From assembly GCA_050949565.1 (NCBI GenBank), contig JBMNFY010000008.1:341488-405487 (forward strand): a DNA stretch of 64,000 nt, read 5' to 3'. Within the stretch, counting starts at the first letter, position 1. Each line of letters opens with the position of its first letter. Position numbers and translations under genes: made by a program. The stretch is from Kiritimatiellia bacterium (lineage in GTDB: Bacteria > Verrucomicrobiota > Kiritimatiellia > RFP12 > UBA1067). Below, piece after piece: positions 46,655 through 63,772 of this stretch. The notes under the pieces were generated by a model, which had not been told where the DNA came from, did not search any database, and was given only the letters and a program-made list of their open reading frames with translations.

Positions 46655-47078
46655 CAGGTTCAGGGTTTCTGGTTTCAGGGTTTCTGGGTTTCAGGGTTTC
46701 TGGGTTTCAGGGTTTCTGGTTTCAAACTTCGGCGTTCAGCGTTCGACGGTCGGCGGTCAACTTTCAACGCTCAAATGGTCGGATGTCCAAGGAACAGGGG
46801 CACGGACATTCCTGTCCGTGGCACGGGTTGGAAAACCCGTGCTCCTTTCGCCGCGCATAACGCGGCGCGGTCAAGCAGACGCTTGACCCTCCCGGTGCTT
46901 CGCAAGCCCAGTGACCGAATGAGCCGTCTCGCAGCGAAAGGGCATTTACTCTCGCGACTCGCGACCTGCGACTCGCGGCGATGGCGATAGCGATCCCGAT
47001 ACCGATAGCGATGCTCTGCAAGTCAGGCGGAAAATATGGAGTGCGGCGGCAAGCGGTATTCCGCACGACGCCGCTTTC
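46655..47078. repeat. Repeat cluster upstream of cas3 (octamer GGGTTTCW run, REP hairpins, GCGACyc heptamers, CGATrs hexamers)
   Basis: cagggtttctggtttcagggtttctggg..; ctcgcgactcgcgacctgcgactcgcgg; cgatggcgatagcgatcccgataccgatagcgat; ggagtgcggcggcaagcg. Confidence 0.75.
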
Positions 47079-47135: not shown

Positions 47136-47189
47136 TCGTGACGTACACGATGGGGTTTGTTTGACGGAAGCGGAAGGGAAGGACGGGGC

Positions 47190-49511
47190 ATGAAATGTTT
47201 CGCACATACGGCACGGCACCGAGAAGATTGGGAGCCGCTTAAAACGCACCTGCTGAACGTGGCCGTTCGCGCCCGCCAATTCGCCTCTGCTTTCGGTGCA
47301 GGCGTCGAGGGCTATATTGCCGGCCTGCTCCACGATCTGGGGAAGTACGGGATACGGTTTCAAGAACGGTTGCACGGCAAGGGACGGCACATCGACCACT
47401 GGACTGCTGGTGCGTGGGCCGCAATAAAGCAATATGGGAAAACAGGCCGTTGTCTTGCGTTAGTTGCGCAGGGTCATCATTTGGGGTTGCAGCAAGACCA
47501 TAAGAGTTTCCTTGATAAAATTTGTACCCGTACGCCTTCTCCCGGCACAACGCTGTCAGCGGACTCTATGAACGAATTGTTGCAACAGTTCGCAGAGGAC
47601 GGATTGTCGTGGCCTGCCTTGCAGAAGTCGTTTTATAACCGGACGGGCAAAAGCTGCTCCGACATGCTGGACGTTCGGATGCTGTTTTCGGCACTCGTCG
47701 ACGCGGACTACCTCGAGACCGAAAAGTTTATCAATACGGTCGAGGTCAAGCCGCAACGGATGGCCGCGCCACTGCTCCAAGCACCGCAAGCGTTTGATGC
47801 TTTAACCCGACACATTGCGAAACTGAACACGAAGCACGGGAACTTGCGTTCAGATGTCGCGGTTATGCGAGCGACCCTGCTTGAGTCCTGCCTTGCGGCG
47901 GCGAAGACTTCTCAAAAGGCTTTTACGTTGAGTGCTCCCACGGGATCGGGGAAAACGCTTTCGATGCTGGCCTTCGCCTTGCAGCACGCCATCGAAAATC
48001 CAGACATCTCCCGCATTATCGTTGTCCTTCCCTTCCTCAACATCGTCGAGCAAACGGCGCTGGTTTACCGTGAGGTGTTTAAGGGTTTTCCAAACGGTTA
48101 CGTGATCGAACATCACAGTCTTGCAGGAACTCGCTCGACTGAGGGCAGAGACAATGACGAGGATCAAGAAAGTGCCGCATACCGTGAACGTCTGGCCGCT
48201 GAAAACTGGGACGCTCCCGTCATCATCACGACAAGCGTGCAGTTCTTTGAGTCGATCTTCGCGAACCGTCCCTCGGCATGCCGCAAGCTGCACAACGTCG
48301 CACGAAGCATCGTCCTGTTTGACGAGGCCCAGACACTCCCCTCTGAACTGGCCATCCACACGCTGACAGCTCTTTCCCGTCTGGTTGAGCGTTACCAGAC
48401 GACGGTCGTGTTTGCAACAGCTACGCAACCGGCTTTCTCCGCGCTCCATCAAGAAACGCTGAAGTGGTGTGCGCAAGGGTGGTCGCCCAGCTCCATGCTC
48501 ACTCGTGAAACGGAAACGCAGTTGTTCGGTAATGCGCGTCGGGTTCGTTTTGAATGGGGTGCCAAAGATGACCGTCTGTCATGGGAAGCGGTCGCCGATA
48601 GGATGCTGGGTGGGGGACACAAGCAGGCGCTATGCGTGATCAACACCAAGAAACAGGCACATGAACTGACAGCCTGCCTGTGTTCGAAAATGTCGCCTGA
48701 AGAACGAGACTCCGTTTTCCATTTTTCAACGGACATGTGTCCTCAGCATCGACGGGATCGACTCACGGAGATCAAAGCGCGTCTGGATGCGCACCAGCCC
48801 TGTTATTTGGTTGCGACGCAGTGCATCGAGGCGGGGGTGGATATCAGCTTCCCCGTTGTTTTCCGTGCTTGGGCTCCGCTGGAGGCGATTATCCAAACCG
48901 CGGGTCGTTGCAATAGGAACAATGAACTCTTCCCCGAAAAAGGCATTTGCCATGTCTTCACGCCTATCGAAGAAAAATTCCCGATGGGATTTTACGGTAG
49001 TGTAACGGCAGTCACACGCTCATACGTTGAGTCACTTGATGAAGAAGCCAAGGTGTATCTTGATGACCCATCGGTCATCGAGACGTACTACACCAGACTT
49101 TACGATGTTCTAAACCAACCAACTTCGGCTAAAAAATTCAAAGACATCTGCGAAGCGCTGGAGGGGTCTGATTTCATAACTGTCGCTGAGAAGTATCGGT
49201 TGATCGAACAGGACATGGTGAATCTGGTCGTGCCCTACGGTGAAGAAGGGCGTCAACTGATGGAGGCCGTCCATAAGATCGGGCTAAACGCCGACTGGTC
49301 GCGCAAGGCGCAACTTTATTCCGTAGCCGTCCGCCGTCCAAGGCCAGGCGACCCCATTCGAGATATCATGGAGCCCGCGCCGATTTTCAAGCGGAGCGAG
49401 CGGCTCGAATCAGAAGACTGGTTCCTTTGCACGGCGAATGCGAAATATGACGAATTAACAGGACTAGAAGTTCCGCATGGCAATGATTTTTGCGATTTTT
49501 GCGAGGTGTAA
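47190..49511 (+). CDS. cas3: CRISPR-associated HD nuclease/helicase Cas3
   Basis: LLHDLGKY, LVDAD, APTGSGKT, FDEAQ, TATQP, ATQCIEAGVDISF, QTAGRCNR. Confidence 0.96.
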   Translation: MKCFAHTARHREDWEPLKTHLLNVAVRARQFASAFGAGVEGYIAGLLHDLGKYGIRFQERLHGKGRHIDHWTAGAWAAIKQYGKTGRCLALVAQGHHLGLQQDHKSFLDKICTRTPSPGTTLSADSMNELLQQFAEDGLSWPALQKSFYNRTGKSCSDMLDVRMLFSALVDADYLETEKFINTVEVKPQRMAAPLLQAPQAFDALTRHIAKLNTKHGNLRSDVAVMRATLLESCLAAAKTSQKAFTLSAPTGSGKTLSMLAFALQHAIENPDISRIIVVLPFLNIVEQTALVYREVFKGFPNGYVIEHHSLAGTRSTEGRDNDEDQESAAYRERLAAENWDAPVIITTSVQFFESIFANRPSACRKLHNVARSIVLFDEAQTLPSELAIHTLTALSRLVERYQTTVVFATATQPAFSALHQETLKWCAQGWSPSSMLTRETETQLFGNARRVRFEWGAKDDRLSWEAVADRMLGGGHKQALCVINTKKQAHELTACLCSKMSPEERDSVFHFSTDMCPQHRRDRLTEIKARLDAHQPCYLVATQCIEAGVDISFPVVFRAWAPLEAIIQTAGRCNRNNELFPEKGICHVFTPIEEKFPMGFYGSVTAVTRSYVESLDEEAKVYLDDPSVIETYYTRLYDVLNQPTSAKKFKDICEALEGSDFITVAEKYRLIEQDMVNLVVPYGEEGRQLMEAVHKIGLNADWSRKAQLYSVAVRRPRPGDPIRDIMEPAPIFKRSERLESEDWFLCTANAKYDELTGLEVPHGNDFCDFCEV

Positions 49512-49624: not shown

Positions 49625-49675
49625 TGACAAAACCAGAAACTTGTCATTGCTTGTTGAGCAGAAATGTGATAACGT
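49625..49675 (+). promoter_or_regulatory. Putative internal cascade promoter with inverted repeat
   Basis: TGACAA-N10-TTGTCA directly followed by TTGCTT-N17-TAACGT. Confidence 0.45.
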
Positions 49676-49685
49676 TGCACCACCA

Positions 49686-50432
49686 ATGGATACTACAACC
49701 TTTACGCTAAAATGTTGGGGGCCGTTCGCCTGCTTCTCACGTCCCGACGGCGGGAAAGTCGAACGTCTCTCCTACCCTGTTCCGCCGCCTTCGGCGGTGC
49801 GGGGGATCTTCAGTGCCATCTACTCTAAACCCATCGAGTTCTGGTGGCAGCCGGTGAGAGTCGAGGTGCTGAAGCCGATTCAGTATATCGCCCTGCGCCG
49901 AAATGAAGTTAAAGATAAGATCTCGGTTGACGCTACTCAGATCCAGAAGTGGATGGAAGGCGAAGAGATCGTTCCGTTGGTGGCGGATGCCGACACGTCC
50001 TACTTCAATAACGACAAAAAAGGACGCACCCAACGCCAGACCATGGCGTTAAAAGATGTGGCCTATAGGCTGCACGCCAAGATCGTGCCCTGGCCGGAGT
50101 TCGCGAATCAAGTCAAGGGACTGGAGGCGCAATTCATCCGCCGGGCCGAAAAGGGCAAGTGCTTCTATCAGCCGGCTTTTGGCTGCCGCGAATTTGCAGC
50201 CTATTTCGAGCCCGTCACCGACGAGAAATTCGCCCAGCCGTCTGAACCGCCGGAAAAAAGCGCTACGCAGAACATAGGGCTGATGGTCTATGACACATTC
50301 GACCTCTCCGTCAAAAACCCGCCCGGCACCGCATCACCTTTCGTCACGCTATTCCATGCCAATCTAGAGAACGGCATAATGGAGATTCCGCCTTTCGAAA
50401 GTGACGCCGTACTCAAGCCCCCAAGGGAGTGA
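49686..50432 (+). CDS. cas5: Type I-C Cas5 (Cas5d)
   Basis: WGPFACFSRP..ERLSYPVPPPSAVRG, RRNEV, RTQR, YQPAFGCREF. Confidence 0.95.
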   Translation: MDTTTFTLKCWGPFACFSRPDGGKVERLSYPVPPPSAVRGIFSAIYSKPIEFWWQPVRVEVLKPIQYIALRRNEVKDKISVDATQIQKWMEGEEIVPLVADADTSYFNNDKKGRTQRQTMALKDVAYRLHAKIVPWPEFANQVKGLEAQFIRRAEKGKCFYQPAFGCREFAAYFEPVTDEKFAQPSEPPEKSATQNIGLMVYDTFDLSVKNPPGTASPFVTLFHANLENGIMEIPPFESDAVLKPPRE

Positions 50433-50434
50433 CC

Positions 50435-52342
50435 ATGCTACACTTGCTCGCCGATTATGCCCGCGACATCGGACTGGCCGCAGAGCCCGGCTTCGTTGCT
50501 AAAGAAATCCGATGGTGTCTGCTCTTTAAGAAAGACGGCACCTTTTCGGAGGTCGTTGACCTCTCTGGAGGCGACAAAAAGTCCAAAGGTTTGTTGTTTC
50601 CTAAATGCCCGGCACTCTCGCACAGCGAACTGATCGGTGGTTCGTCAGGCAGGAGCCAAGTCCTTTATGAAAGCGCTCAAATAATTGCCCTGATGTTCAA
50701 GGAAAATGACACTGATAAGGATAAAGACCGAATTCAAGGCAAACACAACTTCTTCGTCTCCTCTCTGGCGGACTGCGCCCAACACGCCATGCCCGAACTG
50801 GCAAATGTTGCGAAGACGTTGTCAGACAAAGCTTCCTGCACACAAATCGCGGCCGCGCTGAAAGAGAAAAAAGCGAAACCGTCCGACAAGGTAACCATCG
50901 CGGTGGACTTTGCGCGCCCTTTGGATTCATCCGCATGGCACGACTGGTGGCGCAACTTCCGCATAAAACTTGCCGATTCAACCGACAAAAAAAAGCCGAA
51001 GAAGAAAAAAGCTGATGCGTCTCTCATGCTGGATTTCATCACCGGCGAAACTATTACACCGTGCCTCACGCAGGGCAAGATCAGCAATCTCTCCGATGTC
51101 GGCGGCCAATCCTTTGGTGATGTGTTCATCGGCTTTGACAAAGAATCGTTTCGTTCATTCGGTTTTAAGCAGGGAGAAAACGCAGCCGTTTCTGAGGAGA
51201 ATGCGGCGGTCTATCGTGAAGCACTCAACCATTTGCTCAAAAACCACAGTCGGCGGCTTGGGAAGTCCAAAGTGGTCTACTGGTACAAAGGAAAGGTGAA
51301 ACCAGAAGACGATCCAATTGAAATGCTGGCACCTCGCGAAAAAGAAACCAAGGAAGACCTGTCTTTCGACGGGGACGATTTCGATCGACAGCAGGATAAA
51401 GCTGTCGCATTAAGCAATGCCAGAAGGTTGTTGGACTCACTCAAAACCGGTGAGCGACGCGATCTCGGGGAAGCGGCTTTCTACGTCATGGTGTTGTCCG
51501 GAGCATCCGGACGGATCATGATCCGCGACTGGATTGAAGGGCAGTTCGGTCAACTTGCTCAAAACATTGCCGACTGGTTTGAGGATTTTGAAATCGTGGC
51601 TCGATACGGGCAAGGCATGGCACCCTCTCCCAAATTCATGGCCGTCATGGGGGCAACCGTTCGGGAGTTGAAAGAACTGAATGCGCCATTTGTTGCCGCC
51701 ATGTTTCGAGCAGCGCTAGGCGGACGCAACGTCCCGATTCCGCAAAGTGCGTTAGCAGCCGCGTACGCACGCTTCAAGATTGATTTGATCTCGACCGATC
51801 CGAGAACAAATAAACCCAAGGCGTTCAATCATGCCCGGATGGGACTGATTAAAGCGTATCATCTCAGAAAAAAAGGAGGCGTGGAAGTGACCGAAAAACT
51901 CAACGAACGATTAGACTGTGTTCCCTATCAATGCGGGCGACTAATGGCGCTGCTTGCAGAGATTCAGCGGCGGGCCTTGGGGGATGTTGGTGCCGGCGTT
52001 GTCCAGCGGTACTATGCGGCCGCCTCTACCACGCCCGCTTTGGTGCTGGGCCGACTTATCCGGAACAGCAACGCGCACCTAGATAAGATTGGCGGCAATC
52101 TTGCCAGACGGTACGAAGACAAACTGGCGGAAGTCTGGGACGGCATCAGGACGGAGATCCCTAAAACGTTAACACTCGAAGAGCAGACTCTTTTCGCGAT
52201 GGGCTATTATCAACAGATTGCCCAAATCCGAAAAGACGCTGCCGATGCCATTGCGACGAAGAAAGCAAAGTCATCTGCGCAAGATGAAACAGAAACAACT
52301 GACCTGACAGACGACATTCAACTGCAAGGAGAATCACTATGA
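50435..52342 (+). CDS. cas8c: Type I-C Cas8c (Csd1)
   Basis: [50 protein letters not shown]; position in operon. Confidence 0.93.
51887..52342 (+). CDS. cas11: Putative Cas11c small subunit translated from an internal start in cas8c
   Basis: In-frame GTG preceded by AGGAGG (51874-51879) 7 nt upstream, at the start of the helical C-terminal domain. Confidence 0.7.
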
Positions 52343-53304
52343 ACACCCCGATTAAAAACCGCCACGAATTCCTATTCCTTTTCGACTGCGAAAATGGAAA
52401 CCCGAACGGCGATCCCGACATGGGCAACAGCCCGCGTATCGATCCACAGGATATGCACGGACTGATTTCAGACGTCGCCATTAAGCGTCGCATCCGCAAC
52501 TACGTCCAGATCAGGTGCGGGAACGAGATGCCTAACGCAATCTTCATTCAACACTCGAGCAACCTCAACGTACCGATCGCCGTCGCACATGAAAAGACCG
52601 AAGGCGGCCTGGAACTCACCACCGGAAAAGGCGGCGCGGGAAAAGCCAAAGTCGACCTTGCCCGTGACTGGATGTGCGCGAACTTTTATGACGTCCGCAC
52701 GTTCGGTGCGGTCATGAGCACAGGAGCGAATGCCGGACAAGTACGCGGGCCTGTCCAGCTTACATTCGCCCGTTCTGTCGATCCGGTCTTACCAATGGAT
52801 ATCTCAATTACGCGTATGGCCGTTGCTGTGGGGGATCCAAAGAAGTGTAAGTCCAGCGAGGACTACCAAAAACTTGCGGATGACACGCCTGAAGACCAAT
52901 TGAGAACCATGGGACGCAAGGCTTTGATTCCTTATGGCTTGTTTATTGGAAGGGGCTTTGTCAGCGCGAATCTTGCGGCGCAAACTGGGTTTTCCGATGC
53001 CGACCTTGAACTTTTGTGGGAAGCGATCATGAACATGTACGAACAGGATCGCTCAGCCAGCAAGGGGCTGATGTCCGTACGTCGGCTCTACGTGTTCAAA
53101 CATGTCGGAATGGCGACCAATGAGCAGCGTGAACGTGAAGCCATGCTGGGATGCGCTCCTGCTCACAAGCTTTTTGATCTGGTTGAGAAACGGATCCAGC
53201 GTGTCGAGGTGCCCCGCGCTTTTTCAGACTACGAAGCTTCCATCCCGACAAAGGAACAGTTGGAACCTCTGTTGCCCCCGGGTGTCGAAGTCAAGGTCTA
53301 CTAG
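52339..53304 (+). CDS. cas7: Type I-C Cas7 (Csd2)
   Basis: [49 protein letters not shown]. Confidence 0.96.
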
Positions 53305-53347
53305 CGCTGCTCCATGGCATTGCTCTCCCGCTCTCCCGCTTGCGCGG

Positions 53348-53621
53348 TGACCCGCGACTTGCGACCCGCGACTCGCGGTGACACGGCAAAACCGACGCCG
53401 TGCGCCGCCCCTGCCACCGCAGGTCGCAAGTCGCAGGTCGCGAGTCATCCGAAGAAGGAGGTGCCCCGCGACTCGCGGTGCTGCGGCAAGCCCGACGCCG
53501 TGCGCCACCCCTGCCACCGCAGGTCGCGAGTCATCCGAAGAAGGAGGCGACCCGCGACCCGCAGCCCGACGCCACGCGCCGACCCTGCCGCCGCAGGTCG
53601 CAAGTCGCAGGTCGCGAGTCA
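53348..53621. repeat. Three heptamer-built hairpin repeat units upstream of the four-helix-bundle gene
   Basis: Units 53348-53447, 53462-53533 and 53548-53621; left arm TGACCCGCGACTTGCGAC.., right arm ..GTCGCAAGTCGCAGGTCGCGAGTCA; linker TCCGAAGAAGGAGG. Confidence 0.9.
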
Positions 53622-53651
53622 AAACACAACCAGGCCAGAAAGGAACGCATA

Positions 53652-54410
53652 ATGTCAAAGCCCCCCTTCGGACGTTTCGGCGGATACCGCAAACTGCACT
53701 CTTTCGGTTTCGTCTGCCTCGTTTACCACGCCACGACGCGCTTCTGCCGACGGGTCTATCCGTGGAAGGAAGACCCGCTGGGCAAGACAAGCGGCCAGAT
53801 GGTCGGCGCGGCGCGTTCGGCGCGGCAGAATATCGTCGAGGCCTCGTCCCGCGCCAGCACGTCGAAGGAAACCGAAATCAAACTGCTGGACGTGGCAAAA
53901 GCCAGTCTGGACGAACTGCTCGGCGATTACGAGGCGTTCCTGATCGACAACGATCAGTTAGTGTGGTCGGAAAAAGACGAGCGCTGGCAGACCGTCGCCG
54001 CGTTGAAGTTGGATGAGTTCTCGGCGACCGAGGACGTGCTCCACGAATTCAGCCGCCACGTCATCGCGATGCGCCATCGTTTCGCGGACTGGTTGGAGCA
54101 TGAGGATCCATACGTCGCCGCCAACGCGATCATTGTGATAATCAATCGGGCGGCGAGCCTTCTTTTTCGGCAAATGGAACGGGCCATGGCTGATTTCGAG
54201 CGGGAGGGCGGTTTTCGCGAACGCATGACGCGTCTTCGAATTGAACAGCGCGAGGCGTTGAAAGCGGCGGAGCCCCCGCCGCCGTCCTGCCCGGCCTGCG
54301 GCAAGCCGATGACCCGCCGCAAGGCCAAGACCGGGCCGAATGCCGGCAAGCCCTTCTGGGGCTGCACCGGCTACCCGGCCTGTAAGGCGGTTCAGGAGAT
54401 AGAGCAGTGA
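53652..54410 (+). CDS. Four-helix-bundle (23S IVP/Avd-like) protein with suffix domain and topoisomerase-type C4 zinc ribbon
   Basis: GGYRKLHSF..QMVGAARSARQNIVE..LLDVAKASLDELLGDYE..FEREGGFRERMT; CPACGKPM..FWGCTGYPAC; SD GAAAGGA. Confidence 0.85.
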   Translation: MSKPPFGRFGGYRKLHSFGFVCLVYHATTRFCRRVYPWKEDPLGKTSGQMVGAARSARQNIVEASSRASTSKETEIKLLDVAKASLDELLGDYEAFLIDNDQLVWSEKDERWQTVAALKLDEFSATEDVLHEFSRHVIAMRHRFADWLEHEDPYVAANAIIVIINRAASLLFRQMERAMADFEREGGFRERMTRLRIEQREALKAAEPPPPSCPACGKPMTRRKAKTGPNAGKPFWGCTGYPACKAVQEIEQ

Positions 54411-55312
54411 TGACCCGCGACAAACGACCCGCGACCCGCAGTGACGCGGCAAGACCGACGCCACGCGCCGACCCTGCCGCCGAAAGTCGCAAGTCGCAAG
54501 TCGCGAGTCACCAGACAAAAGTGATGACCCGCGACCAACGACCCGCGACCCGCAGTGACGTGGCAAGACCGACGCCACGCGCCGACCCTGCCGCCGCAGG
54601 TCGCGAGTCGCAAGTCGCCAGCCGCCCCTATCCCGAAGACCAGCTTCTGCCGCTTTCAGCCGTAAGCCAGTATGTTCACTGTCCCCGGAGGTGCGCATTG
54701 ATTCACTTGGAGCAGGCATGGTCTGAGAATGTCTTCACCGCCGAGGGGCGCGTGCTCCATGACAAGGTGGACAGCGGCAAGAAAGAGTCGCGCGGCGACC
54801 TGAAGATCCTCCGCAGTCTCCGCCTGCGCTCGTTGCGTCTCGGCATCACCGGTATCGCGGACGTGGTCGAACTGCACCGTTGCGCACCGTCCGAGGGCGG
54901 TGTATCGGTGCCGGGGATCAGCGGCACATGGCTGCCGTTCCCCGTTGAATACAAGCGCGGCGCGGCCAGAAACATCCGCTGCTACGAAGTCCAGCTCTGC
55001 GCACAGGCGCTCTGCCTTGAGGAAATGCTGAACGCTCGGATTCCGGAAGGCGCGCTTTTTCTCGGCGAGAAGCAACACCGGTCAGCAGTTACATTCACGG
55101 ATGCGCTGCGTTCGGAAACCGAGGAGGTCTGCCTCGCCTTGCAGAAGTTGTTTGCCGAAGGCGTCACGCCCCCGGCGGCCTACAGCAAACGCTGCTCGTC
55201 CTGCTCCCTCTTTGAAGCCTGCCTGCCGAAATCCGCAGGCGCCGGCAAGTCCGCCCGCGCATGGCTTGCCCGCGAACTCGACACACTCGACCGCATGGAG
55301 CCGGAAAAATGA
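54407..55312 (+). CDS. cas4: Cas4 with repeat-derived N-terminal extension
   Basis: Core starts YPEDQLLPLSAVSQYVHCPRR; GIADVVE, PVEYKRG, QLCAQALCLEEM, CSSCSLFEAC. Confidence 0.9.
   Translation: MMTRDKRPATRSDAARPTPRADPAAESRKSQVASHQTKVMTRDQRPATRSDVARPTPRADPAAAGRESQVASRPYPEDQLLPLSAVSQYVHCPRRCALIHLEQAWSENVFTAEGRVLHDKVDSGKKESRGDLKILRSLRLRSLRLGITGIADVVELHRCAPSEGGVSVPGISGTWLPFPVEYKRGAARNIRCYEVQLCAQALCLEEMLNARIPEGALFLGEKQHRSAVTFTDALRSETEEVCLALQKLFAEGVTPPAAYSKRCSSCSLFEACLPKSAGAGKSARAWLARELDTLDRMEPEK
54411..54622. repeat. Two further hairpin repeat units (114-bp period) encoding the Cas4 N-terminal extension
   Basis: Units 54411-54510 and 54525 to about 54622; peptide MTRD.RPATRSD.ARPTPRADPAA occurs twice. 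Confidence 0.88.
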
Positions 55313-56334
55313 AGAAGTTGCTCAACACATTGTATGTGACCACGCAAGGCGCTTATCTGCGCCAAGAGGGCGAGACGGTTGTGGTGTCGATCGACCGCGC
55401 GGATGTCCTGAGGTTGCCGATCCACACGCTCTCGGGAATTGTCTGTTTCGGGCAGGTCGCCTGCAGCCCGCCACTGCTTGGACTCTGTGGCGAGCGGGGT
55501 GTGCATGTCAGCTTTCTCACGGAACGGGGAAAATTCTTGGCGCGTGTCACGGGGCCGGTCTCCGGCAACGTGCTACTCAGGCGCGAACAGGTGCGGCGCG
55601 CCGACAAGCCGGAGGCTGCACTGGAGATTGCCCGCAGCTTCGTCTTGGGAAAGCTCGCCAACAGCCGCACCGTGCTGCAACGGGCGCAGCGTGACCACGA
55701 TGTCGGCCCGTCCGTCGCCAAGGCCGTCGATGCGCTGGCCGACGTGATCCGGCGCACACGGCGCGCGGCGGATATCGACACCCTGCGGGGTTTAGAAGGA
55801 GAGGGCGCGGGGAGTTACTTTGAGGTCTTTGACCGCATGGTCGTATCACAAAGCGACGCATTTTCGATGCAGAAGGGACGCAGCCGCCGACCGCCGCTCG
55901 ATCCTCTAAACGCATTGCTCTCATTCTTGTACACGATCTTGGCGCACGATTGCGAAGCCGCGCTGGAAGGGGTCGGGCTTGATCCGCAGATCGGCTTTCT
56001 GCATGCGCTGCGGCCCGGGCGTCCGAGTCTGGCGCTCGATCTGATGGAAGGGTTCCGTTCCATTCTGGCCGACCGCGTCGCGCTTTCGCTGATCAACCTC
56101 AATCAAATCAACGGCAAAGGGTTCACGGTCACGGAGTCAGGCGCGGTCATGATGGACGACGAAACCCGGAAGACCGTTCTGCAGGCGTGGCAGAAAAAGA
56201 AACAGGAGACGATCCAGCATCCGTTCCTGAACGAAAAAGTCGAAATCGGGCTCTTACCGCACGCGCAGGCATTGTTGTTGGCGCGTCATTTGCGCGGCGA
56301 CCTCGATGGTTACCCGCCGTTTCTGTTGAAGTGA
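55309..56334 (+). CDS. cas1: Type I-C Cas1
   Basis: MKKLLNTLYVTTQG, SGNVLLRREQ, RGLEGEGA, RRPPLDPLNALLSFLY, GLDPQIGFLH, LALDLME. Confidence 0.97.
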   Translation: MKKLLNTLYVTTQGAYLRQEGETVVVSIDRADVLRLPIHTLSGIVCFGQVACSPPLLGLCGERGVHVSFLTERGKFLARVTGPVSGNVLLRREQVRRADKPEAALEIARSFVLGKLANSRTVLQRAQRDHDVGPSVAKAVDALADVIRRTRRAADIDTLRGLEGEGAGSYFEVFDRMVVSQSDAFSMQKGRSRRPPLDPLNALLSFLYTILAHDCEAALEGVGLDPQIGFLHALRPGRPSLALDLMEGFRSILADRVALSLINLNQINGKGFTVTESGAVMMDDETRKTVLQAWQKKKQETIQHPFLNEKVEIGLLPHAQALLLARHLRGDLDGYPPFLLK

Positions 56335-56350: not shown

Positions 56351-56641
56351 ATGCTTGTTCTCGTCAGTTACGATGTCAGCACGGTCGATTTGTCGGGGCG
56401 TCGCCGTCTGCGTCATGTGGCAAAAACGTGTGAGAACTACGGGATTCGCGTGCAGAACTCCGTGTTCGAATGCAATGTTGACCAGGCTCAATGGACAGCG
56501 TTGCGGGCAAAGTTGTTGGATATCTTCGATCCCGAGACAGACAGCCTGCGCTTTTATTTCCTGGGCAATGCCTATCAGCGCCGCATTGAGCACCAAGGAG
56601 CCAAGCCCGCAGTGGACGTTGAAGAGCCGCTTATTCTTTAA
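56351..56641 (+). CDS. cas2: Cas2
   Basis: MLVLVSYDVST..RRLRHVAKTCENYGIRVQNSVFEC..DSLRFY. Confidence 0.97.
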   Translation: MLVLVSYDVSTVDLSGRRRLRHVAKTCENYGIRVQNSVFECNVDQAQWTALRAKLLDIFDPETDSLRFYFLGNAYQRRIEHQGAKPAVDVEEPLIL

Positions 56642-56819: not shown

Positions 56820-59800
56820 GTCGCGCCCCATGCGGGGCGCGTGAATTGAAACGAAAAAGATACAACTCGACCCCCCGTCGCGCCCCATGCGGGGCGCGTG
56901 AATTGAAACTGCCAGCCGCGCGCGCCGACCGCGTACGCCCCCTCCGGGTCGCGCCCCATGCGGGGCGCGTGAATTGAAACCGTGCGCAGCGTGATGAACG
57001 CGCAGGAGGCGCGGTCGCGCCCCATGCGGGGCGCGTGAATTGAAACTTCTCTGTATTGCGTTCGCCGTCCGCCGTGGTCGGGTCGCGCCCCATGCGGGGC
57101 GCGTGAATTGAAACGGTTCTGGAGCGAACAGCGCTACACGCTTTTGCGTCGCGCCCCACGCGGGGCGCGTGAATTGAAACAACCCCCCCGCGCAAATTTT
57201 TTTTTGTCACCAAAGTCGCGCCCCATGCGGGGCGCGTGAATTGAAACCATCACTCCGATGGGCGAGAAAAGCGGGACGATCTGGTCGCGCCCCATGCGGG
57301 GCGCGTGAATTGAAACCCCAGGCGTGGTAGCGGCTGTGCTGGTGCTGGTGGTCGCGCCCCATGCGGGGCGCGTGAATTGAAACTGACTGTAGTTTTTTAT
57401 CGTCGCGGCGCGTCCTGGTCGCGCCCCATGCGGGGCGCGTGAATTGAAACAAGATCGATGATGGTGCGAGTCCGCTGTCGCACGGTCGCGCCCCATGCGG
57501 GGCGCGTGAATTGAAACCGCCGGTGGGCTTGGTACGCCGGCAGAAAGGGAGGTCGCGCCCCATGCGGGGCGCGTGAATTGAAACCTCGATGCGTCGATGA
57601 ACGCGATTGACCGCCTGGGTCGCGCCCCATGCGGGGCGCGTGAATTGAAACAATTGATGTCTCGCCCATCTCGTGATGATTTCCGGTCGCGCCCCATGCG
57701 GGGCGCGTGAATTGAAACATAGCCTCTCGCGAGGATGACGCGACCGGCACACGGTCGCGCCCCATGCGGGGCGCGTGAATTGAAACGGCAATGGTAGAGG
57801 TAAGCATACAGGTTGATCGGGTCGCGCCCCATGCGGGGCGCGTGAATTGAAACAAACAGCCGACAATCTCAATCTCAATGCTGGCGGTCGCGCCCCATGC
57901 GGGGCGCGTGAATTGAAACGGCGGCACCTACCGCCAGACCGGGGACCGCTCGGTCGCGCCCCATGCGGGGCGCGTGAATTGAAACGCACTAAGATAAACA
58001 AGCCACTCCAACATCCTGGTCGCGCCCCATGCGGGGCGCGTGAATTGAAACCATTTTCTCCTGCTGTCCGGTCTTTCGAGAACGGGTCGCGCCCCATGCG
58101 GGGCGCGTGAATTGAAACTAAGAGCAAGCAAGAGCAGATATGCGGGTGGGAGGTCGCGCCCCATGCGGGGCGCGTGAATTGAAACAAAAACCGAAGTCTG
58201 CGACCACCCTTGGTCATCAGGTCGCGCCCCATGCGGGGCGCGTGAATTGAAACTTGGGCCATCATGGCGGGTCGGTGGAGGGCGTTGGTCGCGCCCCATG
58301 CGGGGCGCGTGAATTGAAACCGCCTGCACATTACACGAATGCTCGTACGCACCCGGTCGCGCCCCATGCGGGGCGCGTGAATTGAAACTGCGAGTCCGCA
58401 GGATTCTCGAGTGGCTTGTTTGTCGCGCCCCATGCGGGGCGCGTGAATTGAAACATGCTCATCCTTGCTAATAAAGGCGCATTGTTGAGTCGCGCCCCAT
58501 GCGGGGCGCGTGAATTGAAACATGTGGACGTCGATTCGTGTCCCGTCTCCACAAGTCGCGCCCCATGCGGGGCGCGTGAATTGAAACGATGTTCAACCTT
58601 GCGATGACCCCTGTGGGCGTGTCGCGCCCCATGCGGGGCGCGTGAATTGAAACATCCCGCATCCGCACTCGCGGGCGGGAAATTAAAGTCGCGCCCCATG
58701 CGGGGCGCGTGAATTGAAACTCCCACAGCCGTGGGTTTTTGAAGTTCGCGTGGAGTCGCGCCCCATGCGGGGCGCGTGAATTGAAACTGCGGCAATGAAA
58801 CAGAGGTCAGAAAGTAGCAATGTCGCGCCCCATGCGGGGCGCGTGAATTGAAACACAGGCTGGATGTAGCACCAGTAGTCATCCACAAGTCGCGCCCCAT
58901 GCGGGGCGCGTGAATTGAAACATTACCAGTATGCTCCTATCCTCGGCATTGCCCGGTCGCGCCCCATGCGGGGCGCGTGAATTGAAACACGTTTCTACTA
59001 ACATTCATCTTGTTGGGTGGGGTCGCGCCCCATGCGGGGCGCGTGAATTGAAACTTCTTAGATCATTGTTTGCCGTCGTGTGAAGGTGTCGCGCCCCATG
59101 CGGGGCGCGTGAATTGAAACATCGTTATTCAGTATGTCCATCATTTCGTTACCTCGTCGCGCCCCATGCGGGGCGCGTGAATTGAAACAACCGTTTGTTG
59201 TAACGAATGTCAAGCGACGATGTCGCGCCCCATGCGGGGCGCGTGAATTGAAACTTCAGAGGGCGGGCCGGGTGTTGGTGGTAGCGTACGTCGCGCCCCA
59301 TGCGGGGCGCGTGAATTGAAACCCTGATTATCAATCGCACCAACTAGATTTTGCCGTCGCGCCCCATGCGGGGCGCGTGAATTGAAACATATTGCACCTG
59401 GCCATCGACAATTTCTACCAGTCGCGCCCCATGCGGGGCGCGTGAATTGAAACGCACTGGATAACGCGCGTTAATCCGGTGTGGTTCGTCGCGCCCCATG
59501 CGGGGCGCGTGAATTGAAACCCTGACGGTCGTGATGTTGTGTTTTACAAGACAAGTCGCGCCCCATGCGGGGCGCGTGAATTGAAACAACTCGCTAATCC
59601 TGTTGTCAGCGATAAGGTCTGGTCGCGCCCCATGCGGGGCGCGTGAATTGAAACCCACAGATTGGCGCGCTCACCGCCGAGGTTGATGTCGCGCCCCATG
59701 CGGGGCGCGTGAATTGAAACTATCCTGTCCGCTAACTTAAGCAGGTCTGCGTGTGTCGCGCCCCATGCGGGGCGCGTGAATTGAAACCACACAGTTCACC

Positions 59801-62193
59801 CTCGCCGGTGCCGCTATGGGGTCGCGCCCCATGCGGGGCGCGTGAATTGAAACTAATCGCCTTCACGGCAATCTTTAATTCTTCCGTCGCGCCCCATGCG
59901 GGGCGCGTGAATTGAAACCCGTACACCCCCGCGAGGTATTTCGGGAAGCTGTGTCGCGCCCCATGCGGGGCGCGTGAATTGAAACAGCTTACGCAAGCCC
60001 CCTTGTGGGTCGGCATCCACGTCGCGCCCCATGCGGGGCGCGTGAATTGAAACGCCCCACGCCGCCCCACGCCCGCCCGCGCGCTGGTCGCGCCCCACGC
60101 GGGGCGCGTGAATTGAAACTTGTACGCGGGCAGAAAGGGAACAAGAATGAAAGTCGCGCCCCACGCGGGGCGCGTGAATTGAAACCCTTGGGGGCGTATC
60201 GCGTGGGAGTCCTAAGCGTGTCGCGCCCCACGCGGGGCGCGTGAATTGAAACCCCGGACTACGCGGATAAATACGTTGCGCGGATGTCGCGCCCCACGCG
60301 GGGCGCGTGAATTGAAACTGTTTGCGTCTGCGCGATTATGTCTGTGTCATGGTCGCGCCCCACGCGGGGCGCGTGAATTGAAACCGTACATTGAGGCATT
60401 GCAAGAATCATATCTGGTCGCGCCCCACGCGGGGCGCGTGAATTGAAACAACAATGCGGGTAGAGGAACAAATAACGTGACGGTCGCGCCCCACGCGGGG
60501 CGCGTGAATTGAAACACGACACCGCCGCCCGTGTCAGCCCCTCGCGTTTGTCGCGCCCCACGCGGGGCGCGTGAATTGAAACTCCAACGCCTTGACCGCC
60601 TCGGCCCGCACCGCCTGTCGCGCCCCATGCGGGGCGCGTGAATTGAAACCTTTCCCCGCGTTCGTTCTTTCCCCGCGTTCGTGGTCGCGCCCCATGCGGG
60701 GCGCGTGAATTGAAACTTTCCGTCGACTACGATAGCGTACTTGTTCATACGGTCGCGCCCCATGCGGGGCGCGTGAATTGAAACACGGGGGGTGTGAGGG
60801 GAGAGGGAGGTGCTTGGAGGTCGCGCCCCATGCGGGGCGCGTGAATTGAAACTCAGATGCGAGGGGCAAACCACAAGCACCTTGCGGGTCGCGCCCCATG
60901 CGGGGCGCGTGAATTGAAACCGTTCTTTCCCCACGTTCTTTCCCCGCGTGACCGGTCGCGCCCCATGCGGGGCGCGTGAATTGAAACGATGCGAGCACGG
61001 GCGGACGCGCGTGGGCGATCAGGTCGCGCCCCATGCGGGGCGCGTGAATTGAAACTGATGAGCATCACATTCACGGGATGCAAAGAGGGGTCGCGCCCCA
61101 TGCGGGGCGCGTGAATTGAAACCAATGCGGCCGCAATGTGGAATGCCCTCCGTGAGGTCGCGCCCCATGCGGGGCGCGTGAATTGAAACCTTGGCGTGGC
61201 GCAAGTGCCGGTGGAATATCAGGGTCGCGCCCCATGCGGGGCGCGTGAATTGAAACTTCGGTAGTCCACATTCCGGCGTTTGCAGTCTGGTCGCGCCCCA
61301 TGCGGGGCGCGTGAATTGAAACAAGGCCGGTGTTTCAAAGACAGTTGGTTAGATGGTCGCGCCCCATGCGGGGCGCGTGAATTGAAACACTCCGGTCGGC
61401 AATCAGGTTGCGATTTACAGCGGGTCGCGCCCCATGCGGGGCGCGTGAATTGAAACCATCCACGAATCTGTACCAATTTGCTGAAATGGGTCGCGCCCCA
61501 TGCGGGGCGCGTGAATTGAAACTGGAGGTTGCTTGGCGCTCACATCGGCAAACCTGGTCGCGCCCCATGCGGGGCGCGTGAATTGAAACAGAGGCAGACC
61601 TGTACCATGATCTGAGCATGCTGGTCGCGCCCCATGCGGGGCGCGTGAATTGAAACGCCGCACCCGCAAACATGGGAGTTGGTGTGGGAGGTCGCGCCCC
61701 ATGCGGGGCGCGTGAATTGAAACAGACAGACGTGGCCGGAGTGCTGCGGGTGGCAGGGTCGCGCCCCATGCGGGGCGCGTGAATTGAAACCAGATTGCAG
61801 ACGGCTCCCCATCAGATACACCGGGGTCGCGCCCCATGCGGGGCGCGTGAATTGAAACTGGTGATGCGCTTGACGCAATCCCACACCACTCCGGTCGCGC
61901 CCCATGCGGGGCGCGTGAATTGAAACGCCGACACTGGGACTCCGAAAAACGTTGGTGCGCGGTCGCGCCCCATGCGGGGCGCGTGAATTGAAACCCGCTT
62001 GCGCGACCGCAGCGGCTGGGCGGCGGGCGTCGCGCCCCATGCGGGGCGCGTGAATTGAAACCCACCACAAATCACCAGTGAACCGCGTCCAGCCGTCGCG
62101 CCCCACGCGGGGCGCGTGAATTGAAACCTGTTGCTCATCGGTTTTATCATGTTTTTAGGCGTCGCGCCCCACGCGGGGCGCGTGAGTTGAAAC
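56820..62193 (+). CRISPR. Type I-C CRISPR array, about 81 repeats and 80 spacers
   Basis: 33-bp repeat GTCGCGCCCCATGCGGGGCGCGTGAATTGAAAC; spacers mostly 32-36 nt; degenerate terminal repeat (..GAGTTGAAAC) at 62161. Confidence 0.99.
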
Positions 62194-62280
62194 AATTGAA
62201 ACGGCAACTCTAAAGCCGAAATGGCTGGCTGCGAACAAGCGCGGCGGGAGGTTGGAACAATGGTAATCGGATAAGGTGAA

Positions 62281-62361
62281 TGACTTGCGACTTGCGACTC
62301 GCGGTAATGCGGCAAAGTTGACGCCGTGCGCCGTTCCTGCCGCCGAAGGTCACAGGTCACC
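62281..62361. repeat. Degenerate copy of the cas7-cas4 hairpin repeat downstream of the array
   Basis: TGACTTGCGACTTGCGACTCGCGGTAATGCGGCAAAGTTGACGCCGTGCGCCGTTCCTGCCGCCGAAGGTCACAGGTCAC aligns to unit 53348-53447. Confidence 0.8.
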
Positions 62362-62383
62362 CTTGTCCCGAATGATGACTTGC

Positions 62384-63619: not shown

Positions 63620-63772
63620 ATTTAGGATTTAGGATTTGGGATTTGGGATTTTTAACCATGAAACACATGAAACTTCATGAAAAACCGCGCCATGCCTTTC
63701 CGTGTTTCAGTGTATTCCGTGGTTCCCAAAACCCGAGCACTGCCCCCCAAAAAATCTGCGTCTCTGCGTTTA
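63620..63772. repeat. Heptamer run plus CCGAGC-linked triple-repeat cassettes
   Basis: tttaggatttaggatttggggatttgggattt; AACCATGAAACACATGAAACTTCATGAAA; TTTCCGTGTTTCAGTGTATTCCGTGGTT; AAAACCCGAGCACTGCCCCCCAAAAA. Confidence 0.75.

Follow-up and report, generated by a model that had tools for sequence, protein, structure and literature searches.

In a 64,000-nucleotide stretch of DNA from a Kiritimatiellia bacterium (contig JBMNFY010000008.1 of assembly GCA_050949565.1, positions 341,488 to 405,487; hereafter the window), a type I-C CRISPR (clustered regularly interspaced short palindromic repeats)-Cas operon carries a gene for a 252-residue four-helix-bundle (4HB) protein between cas7 and cas4. 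We read this gene and the palindromic units around it, with a probability of about 0.6, as a selfish, promoterless, hairpin-bounded cassette that lacks a recombinase and follows the design of the intervening sequences (IVSs) of 23S rRNA that bear an open reading frame (ORF). The gap between cas7 and cas4 is 1.35 kb long and is filled by the 252-codon ORF and five related palindromic units. It lies at the boundary between the interference module (cas3-cas5c-cas8c-cas7) and the adaptation module (cas4-cas1-cas2). Comparison of sequences shows that the cassette forms one unit, and it also shows the repeats that flank the gene, the GAC core of the hairpin arms, and the turnover at this junction. 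The first-pass annotation of this DNA had described the I-C order cas7-cas4 as broken by a 252-residue gene with three upstream and two downstream units, and Pfam and NCBIfam profile searches together with an alignment of the units agree with that description in all particulars, including the coordinates of the gene (53652-54410, plus strand).

The units are long imperfect palindromes with arms of GCGACnn and nnGTCGC heptamers around a conserved core, as had been claimed; the alignment of all five has 46 invariant columns and a mean column identity of 78%, and a repeat search of the window places the five copies in one family. Each arm holds 3 to 4 heptamers in which GAC (GTC on the opposite arm) is invariant and four positions are free. 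Upstream of the gene, unit U1 (53340-53447) folds as RNA to -65.8 kcal/mol on the plus strand (z -6.0) and -74.9 on the minus strand (z -6.3), U2 (53462-53535) is shortened to one heptamer pair per arm and folds weakly (z -2.5 plus, -1.6 minus), and U3 (53545-53622), which has a 12-nt gap in its left core, reaches -50.7 on the minus strand (z -3.7) and -33.2 on the plus strand (z -1.4). Downstream, D1 (54408-54512) starts at the stop codon of the gene and folds to -74.5 on the minus strand (z -9.9) and -43.5 on the plus strand (z -4.6). D2 (54522-54626) is a tandem copy of D1 (-75.3 minus, z -7.7; -43.1 plus, z -3.0), with a period given by Tandem Repeats Finder (TRF) as 114 nt, or 38 codons, and 94% matches. 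Most units therefore fold far below shuffled sequences, U2 being weak on either strand. Two inverted pairs, I1 and I2, link upstream to downstream units over 33 to 41 nt at 80-82% identity, so that the ORF is enclosed by complementary flanks. A sixth, degenerate unit stands alone at 62282-62362, directly past the last CRISPR repeat; it matches U1 by blastn over 70 nt at 83% identity and has a weak fold (z -0.9 plus, -2.1 minus). Runs of three GCGAC or GTCGC spaced 7 nt apart occur 15 and 14 times in the genome, compared with 0 or 1 for eight control pentamers. The heptamer GTCGC resembles the first five bases of the I-C repeat, but this is probably a coincidence because cassettes far from CRISPR loci share the GAC core.

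The association of gene and hairpins extends to other genomes. It was followed through 80 homologue loci (758 kb, labelled mostly Kiritimatiellae, Lentisphaerae, and Verrucomicrobia, and cited here by L numbers), where a strict hairpin was defined as three or more GAC triplets spaced 7 nt apart, with three or more GTC triplets no further than 120 nt downstream. By this definition, 116 hairpins lie at most 400 nt from the gene and 19 in the remaining sequence, so homologues are flanked by heptamer-armed hairpins of the same kind as those first noticed in the window. Eleven control triplet pairs were counted near the gene: the reversed order, GTC then GAC, gives 37 and CGA/TCG, which overlaps GAC, gives 21, while the other nine give 0 to 6. 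The density of period-7 arrays is 3.82 per kb within 300 nt of the gene and 0.159 per kb elsewhere, a 24-fold difference; 48 of 75 loci have such arrays on the upstream side, 48 of 77 on the downstream side, and 39 of 72 on both. The two flanks form direct repeats in 44 of 69 loci (29-151 nt, 84-100% identity), compared with 3 of 60 and 2 of 57 for neighbouring genes. The triplet GAC/GTC occurs in 171 of the 179 nearby period-7 arrays (55 of 57 loci) and the runner-up triplet in 79 of 179; the background for GAC/GTC is 54 of 100 distant arrays in the same loci and 100 of the 902 arrays across the genome of the window. The arm heptamers themselves vary by locus, with CGACnCT, GGACTTC, GGGACnT, GGACAAA, and GAGACAT among them. 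Covariation within L011 to L015, where 3 of 47 pairs changed on both sides, is uninformative because the arms are almost invariant.

Within the genome of the window, which has 15 matches to TIGR02436 and 7 to TIGR04258, the 24 hairpins with period-7 arms include 9 that are at most 1.5 kb from a 4HB match (0.28 expected). The complete unit is limited by blastn to the cas7-cas4 locus and the one solo copy; this result and the repeat-flanked homologues contradict the possibility, raised at first, that the hairpins are spread genome-wide and homologues have no link to repeats. Three other paralogues of the type with a helical suffix bear hairpins of other heptamers, read by eye as GAGACAn, GAATCGA, and GCTGGGT. 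A genome test confined to GCGAC/GTCGC found the other 15 TIGR02436 matches to be free of these arrays out to 1.5 kb, the nearest array-to-4HB distance being 5.9 kb, and its outcome of no association was dropped since the test was too narrow for paralogues that carry different heptamers. The closest paralogue in the genome with a zinc ribbon (G000:C1:105062-105541) has a GAGACAn array upstream and the complementary nTGTCTC downstream, so its arms enclose the whole ORF, as in an rRNA IVS.

Several comparisons indicate that gene and hairpins move. In the tree of the 4HB protein, the 13 cas-linked copies all fall in one well-supported clade of 19 rows, and three copies outside cas operons (L009, L010, and L014) are nested among the I-C copies. 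When L014, which has no cas genes, is aligned with the I-C operons L012 and L013, or L009 with L002 and L003, nucleotide homology covers hairpins, gene, and hairpins and nothing further; it runs from 62-211 nt upstream to approximately 75-156 nt downstream of the gene. Copies from different contexts thus cease to be alike beyond their outer hairpins, so the package moves as a unit, and comparison of these loci shows gene and hairpins travelling together between unrelated genomic contexts. The operon L095 is close to L003 and aligns with it at the end of cas7 and the start of cas4, with one hairpin and no gene between; on the Cas7 tree it is sister to gene-carrying operons. Its solo hairpin fits recombination between flanking repeats and equally a landing site, and the two would look alike, so either direction of change is compatible with it. 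Presence of the 4HB gene on the Cas7 tree needs 7 changes, and the starred branches force at least 5. The family is multi-copy, with TIGR04258 present in 96 of 151 sampled genomes of the order at 1 to 9 matches each. The proposal in the first-pass annotation of a transposase-less mobile cassette of gene plus hairpins thus draws support from the flanks of homologues, the limits of homology, L095, and the multi-copy family.

The statement that no reverse transcriptase or integrase lies nearby also agrees with profile searches of the genome: the sole RVT_1 match is at C8:45678-45992, approximately 350 kb off on the same contig, and none of the 7 Phage_integrase matches is on that contig (C8). A Y1 transposase was considered as a mobiliser and rejected, as the 7 weak Y1_Tnp matches in the genome, the nearest on C8 at 242562 (approximately 150 kb away), follow no consistent pattern. 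Two weak, IS200-like Y1_Tnp matches (G000:C4:30024-30218 and G000:C17:1660627-1660812) lie 1.2 to 1.5 kb from single-arm GTCGC arrays at C4:28772 and C17:1659052, and another at C20:22157 stands between two short 4HB genes.

The genes into whose neighbourhood homologues have come are varied. The 58 upstream neighbours scanned, all from the 64 homologues outside cas operons, include secretin (4), DUF1016/YhcG (3), RNA ligase (3), type I restriction-modification (2), and MutL (2) genes, along with RAMP proteins and ordinary metabolic genes, and 43 of the 58 are on the same strand as the homologue. Promoter-like sites in 53200-54750 of the window number 0; their absence and the co-orientation fit a promoterless passenger. 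At L043 (2519-8534), a homologue stands between two long ORFs that it abuts within 3 to 6 nt, with a short hairpin upstream only. These flanking ORFs read by eye like halves of one large enzyme gene, which would be an insertion inside a gene.

The protein encoded by the cassette combines a four-helix bundle of the Avd/23S-rRNA-IVS-protein fold with a 4helix_suffix helix and a C-terminal C4 zinc ribbon, and the ATG of its gene is preceded by a purine-rich AAAGGAA. The suffix is well supported (TIGR04258, 59.1 bits against a cut-off of 40, residues 155-200) and the zinc ribbon is marginal by profile (PF01396, 32.4 bits against 32), with C213, C216, C238, and C244 invariant in 16 sequences. The bundle scores below cut-off in hmmscan for both TIGR02436 (22.7, cut-off 24) and PF05635 (22.3, cut-off 33.8), and the six-frame genome search places the same gene over the TIGR02436 cut-off at 24.1. 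An AlphaFold (AF2) model built from 16 aligned homologues has a predicted local distance difference test score (pLDDT) of 84.8. Aligned by VIA-align with approximately 48,000 representatives of the PDB (48,161 chains), it best matches 2gsc, with Z 14.4 and a root-mean-square deviation of 1.5 over 112 residues, followed by 2rld (Z 12.2); both are PF05635 structures. Next come chain B of 8ub7, a ribonucleoprotein of a diversity-generating retroelement (DGR), at Z 11.2 and Avd itself (4dwl) at Z 10.2. Helical bundles give high Z in general, but PF05635 and Avd matches nevertheless head the list, so the relation to Avd suggested earlier is true at the level of the fold. The C-terminal 40 residues weakly resemble the GRF fingers of NEIL3, APE2, and TOP3A (E 0.003-0.13), fingers of a type that binds single-stranded DNA (ssDNA).

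Other searches with the protein were less productive. Foldseek found nothing in the PDB at E <= 0.001, PADLOC has no family match, and PHROGs gave two matches alone, at E 0.02-0.03. A prediction of the complex of Cas1, Cas4, and the 252-residue protein, made without control runs, scored 0.00 and counts neither for nor against such a complex. Relatives number 2145 at E <= 0.001; the best 120 listed are 58-100% identical and mostly about 250 residues long. In three places (G093:C12:7339-7479, G078:C11:12297-12437, and G105:C12:18958-19098), TIGR04258 lies within open frames of 3473 to 3906 residues, which would be either a fusion of the suffix domain to giant proteins or in-frame insertion of a cassette.

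The position between cas7 and cas4 is a recurrent one for this gene. Of the 16 homologues most similar to it (at least 66% identical), 13 are found within or next to cas genes. Ten of these 13 follow cas7 directly, seven of the ten with cas4 downstream; two cas-linked copies have no upstream contig sequence, and cas4 is downstream in both, while the copy in L002 lies between two cas4-like genes. Type I-C loci were then surveyed by a Cas7 search of 301 genomes of the order, which gave a match in 51 and 29 I-C loci other than that of the window. The cas7-cas4 junction of these 29 holds the 4HB gene in 6, no gene in 11 (one of them with a solo hairpin), and other guests in 10, namely Fic (2), RhuM (3), a HEAT-repeat protein (2), a YhcG-type nuclease (1), and uncharacterised ORFs (2); the remaining 2 are uninformative. 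Empty junctions, a check proposed in the first-pass annotation, thus exist in related I-C operons, and the comparison shows the junction to be a general landing place for guest genes. The guests that follow cas7 are found at L083, L086, L093/L094, L104/L105, L085, L106/L087, and L109; the Fic guest carries a helix-turn-helix (HTH) and the YhcG guest is a DUF1016 nuclease. The guest ORF of L106 reaches Y1_Tnp at E 0.0034, which is below the cut-off, and has no Pfam match at 0.001. Some guests, such as those of L083 and L093, are preceded by small heptamer-like hairpins.

Between the window and the other gene-carrying operons, Cas7 is 43-49% identical, Cas1 59-82%, and the 4HB protein 66-83%. 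These identities suggest that an exchange of modules took place at the cas7-cas4 boundary. The closest relative of Cas7 (G024, 87% identity) is on a contig that ends 120 nt after cas7, and the best 4HB match of that genome is 53% identical.

In the window, the cassette also appears to have become wired into the operon. The stop codon TGA of the gene overlaps an ATG at 54410 in GTGATGAC, and the frame from this ATG is open through D1 and D2 into cas4, the only one of the three frames that is free of stops. The cas4 gene itself has no ATG, GTG, or TTG within 28 codons before its conserved LPLS motif, while five other loci (L002, L003, L004, L007, and L008) have a cas4 ATG seven codons before it. 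The sister locus L001 repeats the arrangement: it has the same GTGATGAC overlap, the frame likewise stays open through the one hairpin present there, and cas4 again lacks the start. Because the usual start codon of cas4 is missing and the upstream frame is open, Cas4 may have a hairpin-encoded leader and be translationally coupled to the guest gene, or it may use a non-standard start codon. Such wiring would be a feature of this lineage.

These observations have to be weighed against the possibility that the gene is a domesticated CRISPR accessory, akin to the second proposal of the first-pass annotation, a CRISPR ancillary module in which the protein would bind its flanking RNA or ssDNA. The 4HB/zinc-ribbon protein would then work with Cas4-Cas1-Cas2, for instance in handling single-stranded or hairpinned prespacer DNA, and the hairpins would be regulatory or binding sites. 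The cas linkage of the closest homologues within a single well-supported clade, a conservation of the protein better than that of the neighbouring Cas proteins (68-83% identity, with Cas1 at 59-82%), and the translational overlap with a frame running into cas4 in the window and L001 would all suit such a role. So would the Avd fold, which sits in the nucleic-acid-handling DGR complex (8ub7, by its title). A protein named '23S rRNA IVP' is furthermore listed with CRISPR adaptation modules in a figure legend of Altae-Tran et al. 2023 (PMC10910872). However, 64 of the 80 homologues, the more distant ones, are outside cas operons among diverse upstream neighbours (two, L065 and L077, have cas1 and cas2 approximately 2 to 4 kb off), and L009, L010, and L014, nested in the I-C clade, have left cas operons. 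The I-C loci that do without the gene or hold an unrelated guest outnumber those that carry it, and the lack of a PADLOC match is a further point against an accessory. On this balance we consider the accessory role unlikely and prefer the selfish cassette.

The manner in which the hairpins fold bears on what they are for. Each unit of the window, together with its core, forms a single nearly perfect hairpin when the strand antisense to the cas genes is folded, because positions that are A-C mismatches in the sense fold are G-U pairs in the antisense fold. Over four window units there are 4 G-U pairs in the sense folds and 37 in the antisense folds (0 and 12, respectively, for D1). The cas-linked loci are similar: 20 of their 25 hairpins fold better as the antisense strand, and their G-U pairs sum to 29 for the sense and 95 for the antisense strand. 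A general excess of G-U pairs on the sense strand had been expected and is absent over all 84 hairpins (41 versus 43); the signal is specific to clades, and its sign within a locus agrees in 12 loci and is mixed in 2. Our interpretation is that selection acts on a folded single strand and that the orientation of this strand is independent of the gene; the asymmetry is easier to reconcile with a DNA-level role or an antisense RNA than with a function in the host mRNA.

This asymmetry is also a difficulty for a reading of the hairpins as RNA elements of the host operon, in which they would be processing sites for RNase III or another enzyme, or 3'-end stabilisers, that part the interference and adaptation mRNAs and insulate a passenger gene. 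Such elements have a precedent in ORF-bearing 23S rRNA IVSs, which RNase III cuts out at the flanking stem according to Warrier et al. 2016 (PMC4990558), and the arms of the paralogue at C1:105062, on opposite sides of its ORF, are reminiscent of an IVS stem. Ordinary hairpins also follow cas7 in operons without the gene (L086, L098, and L109), and contigs from RNA libraries contain the region, although presence in them is no proof of transcription. The sense RNA, however, is the poorer folder in the window and the I-C clade, and the count of terminator-like sites (2, with 1.9 expected) does not rise above chance. This reading leaves unexplained why GAC is invariant at a 7-nt phase while four positions vary freely, and why hairpins and gene move together; we consider it improbable. 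A chance meeting, in which generic intergenic repeats filled gaps made by an unrelated gene insertion, is very improbable: the genome does have 902 period-7, 690 period-8, and 1075 period-9 arrays by TRF, a GTCGC heptamer array at 24 other sites without a 4HB gene nearby, and no GCGAC arrays beside its other TIGR02436 matches, but those 24 sites are all single arms in mosaics of short tandem repeats while the full unit occurs only here and as the solo copy, the association holds with controls over 80 loci of other genomes, three paralogues have hairpins of other heptamers, and heptamer-armed hairpins lie near 4HB genes far above expectation.

As a selfish cassette, the element would have the layout of palindromic units, ribosome-binding site, ORF, and palindromic units again. 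Gain and loss would proceed via the flanking repeats: recombination between them would delete the gene and leave one hairpin, and a solo hairpin elsewhere could receive it. One strand of each unit would be selected to fold alone, as ssDNA or RNA, given that nearly all wobble pairs fall on one strand. The protein of the cassette would read the GAC-phased arms, probably as an oligomer, via its ssDNA-type zinc ribbon, and this recognition would promote maintenance or movement of the cassette. Recognition is suggested because a structural stem needs no invariant triplet at a fixed phase, and the 252-residue protein is the candidate reader because no other conserved protein accompanies the hairpins and because its C-terminus is a finger of the ssDNA type.

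It is possible, although as a whole doubtful, that a broader set of statements holds jointly. Such cassettes would form a widespread class of mobile elements without a recombinase, in which an Avd-like protein, as an oligomer, sequence-specifically recognises the 7-nt-phased GAC of its own single-stranded hairpin ends, and host replication or recombination would be exploited for copying or moving the cassette. ORF-bearing rRNA IVSs and many unexplained heptamer repeats of bacterial genomes would follow the same principle. One clade would have been domesticated at the boundary between I-C interference and adaptation, where the hairpins would serve as break-points for module shuffling, and translation of the guest gene would drive expression of Cas4.

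A number of points weigh against the cassette interpretation. In the contigs of two DNA and two RNA-library runs there is no circle, no empty site, and no well-supported joint that skips the cassette. The cassette encodes no recombinase, any mechanism of transfer is hypothetical, and binding of the hairpins by the protein is purely inferred. The single cas-linked clade, with a 4HB protein that stays 66-83% identical across operons whose Cas7 is only 43-49% identical to that of the window, also fits a retained and useful gene. Over all 84 hairpins, the sense strand has the lower energy in 41 and the antisense strand in 43, with the favoured strand differing by clade, and biased mutation is a possible alternative cause of the strand asymmetry. 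Just 29 of 75 flanks upstream of the gene and 36 of 77 downstream of it have a strict hairpin. Four loci from AT-rich genomes (L024, L026, L029, and L036; the first two are labelled Candidatus Avigastranaerophilus) have no heptamer arms by eye, and the protein can therefore persist without GAC arrays; L024 is nevertheless flanked by a 139-nt direct repeat at 96% identity. Finally, the loci are contigs of related metagenome-assembled genomes, so the counts given here are of loci and not of independent events.

Among known systems, the closest in design are the ORF-bearing 23S rRNA IVSs, of which Leptospira provides one case. They share with the cassette a small ORF of the PF05635/TIGR02436 fold inside complementary, stem-forming flanks and the lack of a recombinase of their own. 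The cassette differs in that it sits in a protein-coding operon, between cas7 and cas4, rather than in a 23S rRNA helix; in that its flanks are complete local palindromes in tandem (three and two) with phased GAC heptamers; in the additional helical suffix and C4 zinc ribbon of its protein; and in a better-folding strand that is antisense to the host transcript. In Coxiella burnetii, the 23S rRNA IVS is described by Warrier et al. 2016 (PMC4990558) as carrying the S23p ORF, being selfish and horizontally acquired, and being excised by RNase III. With Avd of the DGRs, part of a nucleic-acid-handling system, the protein shares the four-helix-bundle fold at the Z scores given above, but no reverse transcriptase adjoins the cassette and sequence similarity to Avd is at the level of family profiles only.

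Repetitive extragenic palindromes (REP/REPIN) with REP-associated tyrosine transposases (RAYT) offer another likeness, in that short palindromes flank a cognate gene, the repeat is specific to a gene subfamily, and gene-less copies are dispersed. Unlike in that system, which is of the Y1 type, the gene enclosed here lacks a transposase fold, its units measure 75-105 nt with 7-nt internal phasing, and no Y1_Tnp match is near. Integron cassettes (ORF plus attC) are similar in their promoterless ORF and imperfect palindrome, in the conservation of structure over sequence, in the importance of one folded strand, and in co-orientation with host transcription; unlike them, the cassette has no integrase on its contig, hairpins on both sides, always the same gene family, and no diverse array of cassettes. 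Miniature inverted-repeat transposable elements (MITEs) are non-coding, whereas the cassette carries a conserved 252-residue gene. The '23S rRNA IVP' of Altae-Tran et al. 2023 (PMC10910872), which the legend of Fig. 6B gives as a new association of CRISPR adaptation modules, is likewise a PF05635-type protein beside cas adaptation genes; the passages of that paper that were examined mention no hairpins, cassette, mobility, subtype, or position, and the clade may differ.

A literature search, with subscription papers and supplements outside its reach, found nothing on hairpin-bounded cassettes of the TIGR02436/PF05635 family. New here are the suffix/zinc-ribbon subfamily with its GAC core and the clade of it at the I-C module boundary, as well as the guest-gene hot spot, the solo hairpin, the strand asymmetry, and the coupling to cas4. 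That PF05635/TIGR02436 genes stand in phased-heptamer hairpins of their own points to a concrete candidate activity for the family, recognition of a folded single strand, and ties it to two old puzzles, rRNA intervening sequences and intergenic heptamer repeats. The cas7-cas4 boundary of I-C systems appears as a hot spot of guest-gene turnover in which one guest may control translation of Cas4. This bears on how cas4 starts are annotated and on how lists of 'CRISPR-associated' genes are interpreted. If the pairing of protein and hairpin is specific, it could provide a small, orthogonal module for nucleic-acid recognition.

The first-pass annotation had raised misassembly of the region as a concern, and contigs from independent runs cover every junction. 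Runs of 20 studies contain the region, and their samples come from bioreactor, biogas, sludge, and sediment sources. The joints cas7-U1, U1-U3, U3-gene, gene-D1, D1-D2, and D2-cas4 are all covered by contigs of two DNA and two RNA-library runs, drawn from four studies; these contigs break at the units, as expected for repeats. The RNA-library data are contigs and give neither transcript ends nor strand. The sole joint that skips the cassette (52717 to 54941) was disregarded, as it has 24 letters on its shorter side and comes from a single contig of a single run. At the units, the contigs show irregularities at 53489 (run X11), 53416-53446, 53590-53622, and 54479-54510: loose ends lead to other GTCGC-array sites, and in one RNA-library run a contig fuses a U3-type left arm to a U2-type core. 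The loose ends and the fused contig are hints of variation in unit number or of recombinant units in the population.

The host locus is a complete type I-C system, with TIGR01876, TIGR01863, TIGR02589, and TIGR03640 all above their cut-offs. By Pfam and NCBIfam profiles it comprises cas3 (47157-49511), cas5c (49641-50432), and cas8c (50429-52342), followed on the plus strand by cas7 (Csd2; 52339-53304; PF05107 305 bits, TIGR02589 307.7 bits), the final gene of the interference module and the left flank of the insert. Beyond the insert lie the conserved part of cas4 (approximately 54644-55312, plus strand; TIGR00372 116.4 bits), cas1 (55261-56334), and cas2 (56351-56641). The CRISPR array extends over approximately 5.4 kb (about 56820-62195) with a 33-nt repeat, and its length and 67-nt period give an estimate of about 80 repeats. 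Two repeat variants differ by one base of the stem (CCCATGC and CCCACGC). In many intergenic regions of this genome, three-unit arrays are combined into mosaics, with a T-run and a G-run after each array. Directly upstream of cas3 (46659-47012) there are arrays of period 8/16, 7, and 6, and another example of a tandem repeat in the window is at 63620-63651.

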